From Perkinsus olseni (taxonomy: Eukaryota), in NCBI GenBank assembly GCA_013115125.1, contig JABANN010000142.1, forward strand, positions 1 to 62,732: a stretch of 62,732 nt of DNA, written 5' to 3'. The notes below the pieces were generated by a model. The model was not told the origin of the DNA. It saw only the letters and a list, made by a program, of their open reading frames with translations, and did not search any database. Below are positions 56,421-59,174 of this stretch, one piece after another. A program made the translations under genes and the position numbers. Every line of letters begins with the position of its first letter. Positions within the stretch are counted from its first letter, which is position 1.

Positions 56421-57557
56421 TTAATTCGCCGATCGAAGGGATCGCTTCCCGCAAGGGTAAAGGTCATCATGTGACGAGAGATGACATATCGATCGACCGC
56501 ATGCATCCAAGCCAGCCGTGCCTTTGCAATAGGTACCAAAATAATCGTAGCAGAACTTCCCTGGATTATCCAATCCTGTGCAGCCATGGTCCTGATACTG
56601 CTCGTACACGGACTTGGTAGTGGACCCCCCAGAGGTGGCAGTCGTGGGAGCACTAGGCGTTGTTGAGGGAGTTGGAGCAGCAGCAGGAGGGGGCGGAGTA
56701 GTAGAAACAGCAGAACCGTCGCCAGCGACCGTAGTTTCGGTGGTTGTTGACGGGACACTGCCGGCACCGTTGGCATTCTCGACGAGAACGTCTGCGCATG
56801 CACCAAAGTAGAAAGGGCCAAACTTCCACATCCAGTTGATAGTGTACTTGCCCGCGGCGTAGTCCTCTGGGATAGTGACATAACCAGAAGTGTCCTGAGA
56901 AGAATGACCGTGGAGCAAGAACTCACAAGGCTAACCTACGAAGTCGCGATGGTAGGGCATGCAGCTATCAAGAACTGTGAAGTCGGTCCAGTCGGGGTCA
57001 GACTGGTATGGGGTGATACGGATCTCAATACAAGTACCTAAAAGTCGAACAGATATCAGGTATGAAAAGTACGATCACCGAAGAGGGCGGGAAGGTGGGT
57101 ATGATCTCACCTTCGGACTCGCCATTCTCTGCATGACCGTTGTTGCGCCACAAGATACGCAGCTTCTTGCCTGATACGAGAAATACAGAAACCTGGGAGT
57201 AGCAAGGGATGCCCAACTCACCGGCATTAACGACGGCTAAGTCATTGATATTTGGAGCGCCCGGTGATCCCGTTGCTCGGCAGGGTCGCATGCTGCTCTC
57301 GGTCAACTCAATATTGTGGCGAGGGGCGAGGGCGCACTCCTCAAGGCTGGCCAACGGACACACGTATCTCTGAAAGCAAACCCGCTGACAACTCAACGGG
57401 AGCTTGAACTCACTGTATAGTAGTCGTCATCTAAACCGATGTAGCCCATGCGTGCCAGGCCCTCGTCCACATCGCCTTCAAGGTACCACATCCAACTGTG
57501 CGCATCGGCAGCGAAGAATAGGCCGAGCAGATAGGAAACGAGTCCAAAGAAAACCAT
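56421..57557 (-). CDS. Secreted His1 LPMO-like protein, copy A
   Basis: MVFFGLVSYLLGLFFAADA|HSWMWY, WRNNGH, YTINWMWKFGPFYFGACADV, P/T linker and a 6-Cys tail; 5 GT-AG exons. Confidence 0.75.
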
Positions 57558-58167
57558 TGGGTACTGTAGAAAAAAAATGTCTTGCCTGGCCAGGAATCTG
57601 CTAATCCCTCTTCGGGGTTCGAAGACATGCTCAAGTCAATCAGGAACTACGAGACAGAGCGAAACTGTAGGATACTCCAAGATTCTTATCTTTCGGCAGT
57701 TTCAGATTCCTCCAAAATCGCGCAAGCGCGCCACGAATCCAAGCTCTCGGCCAGCTCATGAGGCCGAAATCCACACAAGGGCCCTCCGTCGTGTGAGTTC
57801 TGGAACTCGACGCACAAACCGAGAAATTGCCCAAGAACTCAGTGTTGCCGAAAGCCTTCTTACCCTTCCACAGTTAAACACAAAACTGCATTGAAGATTG
57901 AATCCAGTCTAGTGATCGATCACATGAGATACCACACTGGCGCGGATCACGCTTCACCGACAAAAAAAAGCACACCAAATTCACAAACGTCTTGAATTAA
58001 CGAATTAGAGAAAGAAATCAGACCATTGAGCCACTTATGGACAAGCAAAAATTAATGATTGAATTCGGCTTAATATCGATATGAATAACCTTATATACGG
58101 AGGGGTACTTTAGAGCGGTAAGAGGCTGTGAGAGATGAGTCTCGAGATGCCCGAGAACCCGATTCTG

Positions 58168-59174
58168 CTACCCTTCACGGCGTAGTCTCCTACAAGGGCC
58201 CAACTCGCTGTGATCGGACTTATGACAAATATGGCGTCCGCAGTAATCAGCGCCAGCCGAGACCTTGCAATATGTGCCATAGTACTCGTAGCAGAACTCA
58301 CCAGGGTTCGCCAGGCCCGCGCAACCATGCTGCTTGTAGAGTTCAACGACATTTTGAGCGCCAGCACTAGCAGGTGCCTTAGCAGGCGCAGGAGCTGATT
58401 GCTTCGTCACCGGCTTAGCAGTCGTCTCCATCACCACTGAGCCCACAGCGTTAGCGTTAGTGACCGCGATGTCCGCACAAGTCGCGAAGTAGAAAGGGCC
58501 AAACTTCCACATCCAGTGTATAACGTACTTCCCGGAATAAGTCTCCGGGATAACCACAATAGCAGAAGTTTCGTGATGAGCGTGATACGGCAAACACAAC
58601 TCTAGGATCTTGAAGTCACTCCAGTCGGGGTCAGCTGAGTAAGGCGCGATGCGAACTTGGACGCAGGTACCTGGAAAAGTACTCTTATTCTGGCAGATAA
58701 GGCACATTGCTACCATCAGACTCTCCGTGAGTATGACCATTGTTCTTCCAGTAGATTCTTAGTGCCTTGCCTGACACGTGACCGCGTGAAAGTCTGTGGA
58801 CTAGAGCTTAGCTCACCAGCAGTGACGGCTGCAATCTCCTCAACATTGGGCGCGCCTGGAGAGCCGCTAACCCGGCACGGACGCAAGCTGCTCTGATCGA
58901 GCATTATCTCATGCTTGGGCTCGAGGAAGCACTCCTCGAGGGATCTCAAAGGACAGATGTACCGCTGAACAGAACCGGAGTTCGTAAATAACTACAATAG
59001 AGGAGAGCTTACCGTGAAGTAGTCGTCATCGGGGCCAGATATCCCCATCCTGGGATACCCGTCTTCGATGTCACCTTCTAGATAGAACATCCAACTGTGC
59101 CCAGTCGCGTAATGAATTATCGTAGAGAGCACAAGTGCTCGCGAGAGCGCGTTTCTGAAGGAGAGGGATGCCAT
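58168..59174 (-). CDS. Secreted His1 LPMO-like protein, copy B
   Basis: Signal..YATG|HSWMFY..GYPR, WKNNGH, YVIHWMWKFGPFYFATCADI, linker and the same Cys tail. Confidence 0.75.

Follow-up and report, generated by a model that had tools for sequence, protein, structure and literature searches.

The closest described relatives of the genes treated here are the lytic polysaccharide monooxygenases (LPMOs), which are grouped in auxiliary activity (AA) families, and the histidine-brace copper proteins of the X325 (Bim1-like) family. According to the available parts of the sources cited here and below, AA11 and AA15 enzymes bear Cys-rich tails of unknown role and all X325 members are glycosylphosphatidylinositol (GPI)-anchored (PMC8615602), and an Asp occupies the fourth copper site of X325 (PMC10952591). 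AA15 is reported from Alveolata and alternates between Tyr and Phe at the axial position, with axial Phe being typical of chitin-active enzymes (PMC5823890). More than 96% of AA9, AA10 and AA11 enzymes keep a second-sphere Gln or Glu, which comes from the usual motif position or, as in some AA10s, from another backbone position (PMC10472438). A stretch of 62,732 nucleotides (nt) from Perkinsus olseni, referred to as the window (NCBI GenBank assembly GCA_013115125.1, contig JABANN010000142.1, positions 1 to 62,732, forward strand), carries two adjacent genes, A and B. Their predicted products consist of a signal peptide, a histidine-brace LPMO-fold domain, a linker and a six-Cys module. They are best read as belonging to an undescribed protist LPMO family that, as judged from Pfam, PDB sequence and structure comparisons, is covered by no curated LPMO family.

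The predicted structure of B has an LPMO-type beta-sandwich with the first residue of the mature chain, His1, in register. The AlphaFold2 model of P0006, an allele of B, was built from a 45-sequence alignment (mean predicted local distance difference test score, pLDDT, 84) and comprises a confident beta-sandwich at residues 26–193, a disordered linker and a confident C-terminal module. Comparison with 48,161 representative chains (VIA) places LPMO-superfamily chains in all of the top 23 positions (Z 8.7–12.5, 11–20% identity), and the next chain, which is the first unrelated one, has a Z of 7.8. The aligned range begins at model residue 26, which is His1, in 22 of the 23, and His1 or the adjacent residue is aligned to the first residue of the top LPMO-superfamily chains. 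The best match is the AA15 chain 5msz (Z 12.5, root-mean-square deviation 3.5, 146 aligned residues, 16% identity), and an AA11 structure gives a Z of 11.1 (deviation 2.7, 133 aligned, 20% identity). The other values are 11.2 for AA10, 10.9 for AA9, 10.2 for AA13, 9.6 for fusolin, 9.2 for AA14, 9.1 for X325 and 8.7 for AA16. Foldseek and a second VIA run agree with an LPMO-type fold. Judged from the model, the domain is about equally distant from all LPMO families listed (at most 20% identity).

Both mature chains are predicted to begin with H-S-W, after A-x-A in A and A-x-G in B. A heuristic signal rule, which stands in for SignalP and combines a hydrophobic 8-mer with small residues at −3 and −1, holds directly before the first domain residue in 40 of the 42 family members with a long enough leader, whereas it holds before only 3 of the 347 remaining His residues of these proteins. 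Both chains contain His91 (numbered from His1) within W-x-N-N-G-H, and their domains end with W-M-W-x5-Y-F-x2-C-A-D. The linker that follows has 57 residues in A (72% P/T/A/S) and 35 in B (57%), and the last module has six Cys in each. A hydrophobic C-terminal tail or GPI signal is absent from A and B, as the maximum hydropathy over 15 C-terminal residues is 0.45 and 0.12, respectively. A preliminary description drawn from the DNA letters had proposed a tandem pair of secreted paralogues with an LPMO-like fold, signal cleavage exposing His1, a second His in W-x-N-N-G-H, the same domain end, a P/T/A linker and an unrecognised Cys-rich domain. The two spliced genes, with the same architecture and matching introns, agree with it on all of these points, and one refinement is added: the family consensus around the second His is W-x-G-N-G-H, the N-N form being a variant of Perkinsus A and B.

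The putative active site was followed through 49 domains, or 44 after removal of near-duplicates. They were picked by the N-terminal pattern [HK]-[SD]-[WFY], so the count of His1 in 42/44 is biased upward and is not used as main evidence. Not in this set are P0060 and P0064, which are His-less, and every protein with an incomplete N-terminus. His91 is conserved as the putative second brace His (present in 45 of 51 representatives whose sequence spans this position, one read by eye), and the axial residue at position 159 is aromatic in 44/44 (Phe 24, Tyr 20). When the family profile is searched against PDB, His91 lies no more than one residue away from the loop His of AA11, and positions 159 and 157 fall on its Tyr140 and Glu138. 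The late aromatic residue and both His residues named in the preliminary description hold up. The second sphere differs from the usual one. At position 157, two before the axial aromatic, the 44 domains have Phe (39), Ile (3), Asp (1) or Leu (1), and the N/Q/E-x-F/Y motif does not apply, with the canonical Glu/Gln replaced by Phe or Ile in 42/44. As this motif served to mine earlier LPMO families (available text of PMC5320794), a motif-based hunt could have missed the present one. Candidates for the missing role, judged from the alignment, may be Asp25 (Asp or Glu in 41/44, lost only in two His-less members and one long-branch outlier), Asn89 (42/44) or position 95 (Gln or Glu in 37/49, Glu in A and B, and Val in the single-domain Perkinsus paralogues).

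None of the tests run for AA9, AA10/15, AA11, AA13, AA14, AA16, AA18 and X325 places the family in any of them. In the Pfam scan no family member reaches the cut-off of any Pfam LPMO family. PF03067 (LPMO_10) matches 0/45 members at E up to 1, and PF03443 (AA9) gives weak matches in 6/45 (best 17.6 bits against a cut-off of 27.8, best E 0.004). No Pfam or PDB sequence match was found for AA13, AA14 or AA16, whose structural identity is 12–16%, and no AA17 entry occurs among the matches listed in the profile-PDB, Foldseek and VIA searches. Pfam searches with single exons and with full Perkinsus proteins gave no meaningful match, and a single-sequence search of PDB gave nothing at E up to 10. 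The only significant PDB matches of the family profile are two AA11 structures (E 2.4e-6 and 3.1e-6, partial, 30 bits), and the profile does not find 5msz at E up to 10. A control gene from the same genome matches PF03067 at 59.5 bits, finds 5msz at E 2e-10 and has an E-x-F-x-x-C motif. It is recognised as AA15-type where A and B are not, which indicates that A and B are not ordinary AA15s, and it has no BLAST similarity to B. This gene lies at G000:C2853:18682-19449, intronless over the domain, with a copy at G000:C2259:1195-1737 that reads in two frames near its start. The possibility of an unclassified family, raised in the preliminary description, is thus strengthened among the families tested.

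When compared to AA11 (4mah/4mai, 9exj), the family shares P-C, a loop His followed by G-x-C, the W-x-W strand and an axial aromatic three residues before a Cys. In contrast, AA11 has E-x-Y where the family has F-x-F/Y, the family loop before the second His is one residue shorter, its N-terminal region is longer with two extra Cys, its C-terminal module is another one, and it comes from protists rather than fungi. AA15/LPMO_10 is similar in its structural match, His1 and His91, the axial Tyr-or-Phe alternation, glycoside hydrolase (GH) fusions and occurrence in alveolates; it differs in having Ala where the family has Asn two before the second His, and in the Glu before the axial residue that the family lacks. 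AA10 and AA9 have the beta-sandwich and the His1 register (Z 9.1–11.2), but show 11–18% identity, reach no cut-off, and have Glu rather than Asp as the conserved N-terminal acid. X325/Bim1 (6ibh) has the His-brace fold, and Asp25 could parallel its fourth ligand, whereas the family has an invariant axial aromatic, glycan-enzyme fusions, no GPI tail and 12% identity. CelOCE is described as a jelly-roll without an N-terminal His in the available text of PMC11946906, and it is probably AA18, with which its paper is cited together in the available part of PMC13431639; the family model has the LPMO beta-sandwich and His1 instead. A literature search, with most subscription papers outside its reach, turned up neither a paper that describes this family or reports LPMOs from Perkinsus nor one that mentions the name DUF7492. 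The available text of PMC5320794 does not mention the family, that of PMC13353379 holds nothing further on it, and the eight supplementary files of PMC5823890 do not name Perkinsus or Skeletonema, although names within figures would escape.

The family extends well beyond Perkinsus. With P0006 as query, phmmer finds 67 clusters at E up to 0.001 among 1.84 billion representatives, and 51 at 1e-10; P0070 (low complexity), P0074 (chimeric) and P0076 and P0079 (both distant) are marginal among the 67. A profile search adds 21 new identifiers and a metagenome scan gives 15 loci. Among 20 representatives looked up, the named members come from Perkinsus and three Skeletonema diatoms, and others from marine eukaryote transcriptome sets; free-living protists and not parasites alone have the family. 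Short-pattern scans (alignment A2) of viral and prokaryote collections gave 38 and 46 pattern matches, none of them confirmed, and such scans cannot prove absence. In the tree of 44 non-redundant domains the six Perkinsus rows group together on a single branch (98/99). Three Perkinsus species keep the family, with at least three paralogues. The P. olseni assembly contains A, B, a third single-domain paralogue and a shortened, near-identical copy of the third. The third paralogue (G000:C2783:20705-21454, minus strand) ends after the catalytic domain without linker or module, has an axial Tyr, and has introns at matching places as read by eye; its near-identical copy (G000:C3095:12610-13042, plus strand) is cut by the contig end. 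In P. chesapeaki, two such single-domain genes share a contig. Four relatives, P0055, P0058, P0064 and P0060, keep the fold motifs and modules and have lost the brace His, with Lys at position 1 in two of them. Two complete His-less relatives form a long, well-supported branch, and these proteins are possibly non-catalytic binders.

A hidden Markov model (HMM) of the module finds 144 copies in 88 proteins; the number per protein is none (13 proteins), one (28), two (28), three (16) or four (3). Five of the Cys occur in 142 or more copies; the sixth occurs in 114, being missing where the match is cut short. Other kept residues are Tyr (130 of the 144 copies), Phe (108), a second Tyr (124), Trp/Tyr (107), Asp (142) and Arg (136). 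Folded alone, the module has two short helices and a hairpin (pLDDT 91). It has no Pfam, Atlas, Foldseek or VIA match (best Z 2.2 among 48,161 chains), in line with its description as unrecognised, and small disulfide domains are often missed by such searches. Within the P. olseni assembly it occurs in A and B only. Its repeats on P/T/S linkers and its conserved aromatics resemble those of binding modules, and by this analogy it may be a new carbohydrate-binding module. A GH16 domain (PF00722, EIDIE motif) is fused in 14 of the 88 relatives, in the order His domain, module, GH16 and up to three more modules, the modules thus standing before and/or after GH16. The eight fusions whose His domain is complete group together on one branch (98/99). 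One named member, P0084 of the diatom Skeletonema marinoi, has a His domain, a module and GH16. GH16 is the only catalytic partner seen, and GH18, GH19 or a known chitin-binding module never occurs. The GH16 partner is divergent, its best solved matches being kappa-carrageenase (E 2e-8) and 1,3-1,4-glucanases (E 2e-6). P0022 has, at residues 400–765, a Cys-rich fusion partner of about 350 residues without a Pfam match, which belongs to an 18-member cluster, and P0020 has a beta-rich insert between modules at residues 330–450, also without a Pfam match. The module was considered as an independent mobile domain, as 17 of the 88 proteins have modules without a His domain. The data do not show this, as at least eight of them begin with a GH16 tail as read by eye and look like fragments. 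P0078, with four modules, is the only possible separate architecture, all searches having begun from this family.

Catalytic LPMO activity of some kind, directed at the cell's own wall or matrix or at host or food glycans, appears probable from the model and the alignments. The favoured reading is more specific, and about an even chance is given to it: A and B would be secreted copper histidine-brace LPMOs acting on insoluble beta-glycan at the cell's own wall or matrix, with copper binding, geometry, activity and substrate all deduced by comparison. Signal peptidase would free His1, as the family-wide pattern suggests. One copper would then be held by the N-terminal amine, His1 and His91 over Phe159 (B) or Phe161 (A), the fold being predicted and the ligands taken from alignment and conservation. 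With a reductant and H2O2 or O2, the copper site would hydroxylate a glycosidic carbon and the chain would break, following established LPMO chemistry. Steering of the oxidant is normally done by the Glu/Gln of the E/Q-x-Y/F motif; with Phe in its place this job must come from elsewhere, perhaps from Asp25, Asn89 or Glu/Gln95. The disulfide-rich module on its linker would anchor the enzyme on the insoluble glycan. By analogy, the most likely target is a beta-linked glucan of the kind cut by GH16, in the wall or matrix as the cell grows, divides or forms spores, and chitin is a close second. The GH16 fusions and the presence of the family in free-living protists speak for a beta-glucan at the surface of the cell itself, and this occurrence together with the 15 metagenome loci favours a self-directed ancestral role. 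Of the three roles offered in the preliminary description, action on own-wall glycans is retained as the favoured one. Copper handling is less favoured in view of the axial Phe/Tyr, the absent GPI tail and the glycan-enzyme fusions. The case for a host-specific role is weaker given the family's spread in non-parasites.

Several points weigh against this reading. Position 157 is never Glu or Gln, second-sphere mutants with Asp or Asn inactivate quickly (available text of PMC10472438), and Asp25 or Glu95 would have to reach the copper. Searches of the species' own genome found no match for GH16, PF24320, glucan synthase or chitin synthase, but are weak in this intron-rich draft, and controls for two of them gave no signal. 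GH18 matches lie on five contigs of the same assembly. The GH16 partner is divergent and may have any of several substrates, the Perkinsus modules lack the Trp/Tyr that most copies have, and the literature search, including the available part of PMC7053492, gave nothing on Perkinsus wall composition. The axial Phe, the GH18 matches and the chitin-active AA11, AA15 and AA10 relatives together make chitin a close alternative for A and B.

These same features could mean that the catalytic enzyme is turned on foreign glycans such as bivalve chitin, mucus or food and acts together with secreted GH18 chitinases in entering host tissue or feeding on it. That reading is rather unlikely. The separate AA15-type gene in the genome, the retention of at least three paralogues in three Perkinsus species and the spliced forms in runs under a second organism label (X9, X10) are in line with it, but the family is widespread in non-parasites and its catalytic fusion partner is GH16 alone. 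Only marginally better placed, and still improbable, is a non-lytic copper-brace protein, either an X325/Bim1-like scavenger or carrier, or a wall-parked oxidase producing H2O2, with Asp25 as a fourth copper ligand. The second sphere would be either an unusual catalytic one or the sign of such a protein. The absent Glu/Gln, the Asp of the fourth X325 site and the presence of X325 and an AA16 LPMO-like protein among the fold matches speak for it, as does the persistence of the His-less sub-branch (P0055, P0058, P0064), which shows that the scaffold can work without the brace. On the other side, the axial aromatic is invariant, A and B have no GPI-type tail, the GH16 hydrolase fusion and repeated binding-type modules fit attack on glycans, and X325 ranks below AA15, AA10, AA11, AA9, AA13 and AA14 in the fold search.

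The alternative on membership is that the family is an outlying branch of DUF7492 (PF24320), AA11 or AA15, perhaps already in CAZy, and this is somewhat doubtful. PF24320 is the commonest Pfam match, weak in 28 of 45 members and always below threshold (best 25.5 bits, cut-off 27), with a precomputed match on record for one relative (P0125). Its matches cover mostly the last 40–60 residues, although in the fragment P0073 the alignment starts from the N-terminus, and Perkinsus B and its orthologues have no such match in the Pfam scan. DUF7492, which we take to be a fungal family of unknown function, also starts H-S/T-W, and on sequence grounds the present family may be its protist sister group. 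The AA11 profile match points the same way but is partial and 20% identical. For AA15, the report from Alveolata, the ESM Atlas feature matches to LPMO_10 clusters (0.90 and 0.89) and the UniRef automatic name of some alleles ('Chitin-binding type-4 domain-containing') stand beside the complete lack of PF03067 matches and a 5msz that the control gene finds and the family profile does not. The top Atlas match (0.90) is a 63-member, mostly Mucoromycota cluster automatically named chitin-binding type-4 and without a common Pfam family, perhaps another unclassified LPMO-like group. Very improbable is an LPMO-like fold that binds no metal in vivo owing to wrong cleavage or translation from Met4. 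The public models P0005 and P0007 start at Met4 and one spliced B form skips the start codon, but three Perkinsus species conserve both the start codon and the signal peptide, gene A transcripts retain the start, and His directly follows the signal pattern in nearly all members.

Genes A and B are transcribed and spliced. They lie on the minus strand with B upstream of A and a spacer of 610 nt; their features are listed in the table below. The GC content of the window is about 50%, and its introns are short with GT-AG ends. All seven predicted introns (four in A and three in B) are GT-AG and 43–73 nt long, and all seven, after prediction from the sequence, are seen as exact joints in contigs of public runs. 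Such spliced contig forms indicate that transcripts exist for both genes. Three A introns are supported in 4/4 runs, the first A intron in 3/4 and the B introns in 2/4. None of these runs is filed as RNA, contig depth is not taken as an expression rank, and the contigs carry no stage- or infection-resolved expression information. All three B introns share codon and phase with introns of A, which shows that the pair arose by duplication. A and B have 164 identical residues, and their catalytic domains are 64% identical. Proteins named as P. olseni are 96–99% identical to A and B, and P. marinus and P. chesapeaki have orthologues. Gene A has 294 residues identical to the named P. olseni protein P0134, and gene B has 285/289 identical to P. 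olseni P0006, 235 to P. marinus P0010 and 229 to P. chesapeaki P0004.

Table. Features of genes A and B in the window (positions from the first letter of the 62,732-nt stretch; aa, amino acids).
Feature	Positions	Strand	Basis or remark
Gene A coding sequence, 307 aa, 5 exons, P. olseni	56421..57557	-	signal peptide, predicted His-brace LPMO-fold domain, linker and 6-Cys module
Gene A exons	57557-57414, 57369-57222, 57170-57111, 57037-56940, 56894-56421	-	predicted; joints in public contigs
Gene A predicted signal peptide, 19 aa, ends A-D-A	57501..57557	-	heuristic rule
Gene A His1, residue 20 of precursor	57498..57500	-	sequence
Gene A Asp25, conserved acid, candidate second-sphere residue or ligand	57426..57428	-	family alignment
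Gene A His91, putative second brace His	57133..57135	-	alignment, conservation
Gene A Phe161, axial aromatic position; Phe also at -2	56805..56807	-	alignment
Gene A P/T/A/S-rich linker	56601..56777	-	composition
Gene A 6-Cys module	56451..56600	-	module HMM, sequence
Gene B coding sequence, 289 aa, 4 exons, architecture as gene A	58168..59174	-	contig joints
Gene B exons	59174-59013, 58964-58817, 58770-58714, 58670-58168	-	predicted; joints in public contigs
Gene B predicted signal peptide, 25 aa, ends A-T-G	59100..59174	-	heuristic rule; model helix 5-19
Gene B His1, residue 26 of precursor	59097..59099	-	fold alignment, sequence
Gene B Asp25	59025..59027	-	family alignment
Gene B His91, putative second brace His	58733..58735	-	alignment, conservation
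Gene B Phe159, axial position, aligned with Tyr140 of AA11 chain 4mah	58486..58488	-	profile alignment
Gene B linker, low pLDDT	58342..58458	-	model, sequence
Gene B 6-Cys module, two short helices and hairpin, pLDDT 91	58192..58341	-	model; no structural match
Alternative 5' intron of gene B (GT...AG), acceptor within signal-peptide codons, start codon removed	59155..59495	-	loose contig ends at 59154 matching 59496 onward in runs X7 and X10; mixed in X8

Some contigs of gene B carry an alternative 5' end. In runs X7 and X10 the sequence at 59154 is joined to 59496; a second junction, to 59638 (window 59155-59637), is probable from a mixed consensus in X8. The acceptor lies 17 nt past the start codon, so that the start of the signal peptide is lost; the first ATG left in frame encodes Met4 of the mature chain, and a protein begun there would lack His1. 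One unspliced contig of X7 covers the start codon of B. This alternative splicing is possibly a switch between secreted and non-productive forms. Another X7 contig spans the last B exon and the 610-nt spacer into A (window 57414-58516), and contigs of X8 and X9, from two other studies, start exactly at the AG of a pyrimidine-rich acceptor at 57565, 8 nt before the start codon of A. Spliced-leader trans-splicing occurs in Perkinsus, and these contigs give a weak hint of a B-A precursor resolved in this way.

An NFU1-like iron-sulfur scaffold gene (window 54982-55413, minus strand) lies just downstream of A. The P. chesapeaki model P0011 fuses NFU1 to the A orthologue; this fusion was set aside as a gene-model artefact, the same NFU1-like gene being separate here, and the shared neighbour indicates that gene order is conserved. 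The fused model, together with the start of P0005 and P0007 at Met4, which leaves them without His1, is part of why public annotation labels these genes hypothetical. Further neighbours are an aspartyl protease exon at 43350-43964 (minus strand, PF00026, 30 bits), a weak PAP2 phosphatase exon at 52267-52686 (minus strand) and an apparent secreted cyclophilin gene at 46953-48535 (by eye). No glycan-enzyme cluster is seen near A and B within the window.

To our knowledge, every LPMO family added to date came with a substrate or biological role that was new. The present one lives in marine protists that are poorly sampled. The GH16 partner points away from cellulose, chitin, starch, xylan and pectin as substrate, and A and B may attack a polymer for which no known LPMO family is specialised. 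The boldest reading, which is held to be unlikely, is a new eukaryotic AA family of alveolates, diatoms and other protists that cleaves a beta-1,3-linked or GH16-type algal glycan with a non-canonical second sphere and a new binding fold. If true, it would add an oxidative route to marine glucan turnover and protist wall remodelling. The family also tests the near-universal second-sphere Glu/Gln rule, having Phe there while both His residues and the axial aromatic are kept, and the six-Cys module is a handle for finding further enzymes. Perkinsus is a major shellfish parasite with a poorly characterised wall, and A and B are candidate wall or host-interaction enzymes that annotation has missed.

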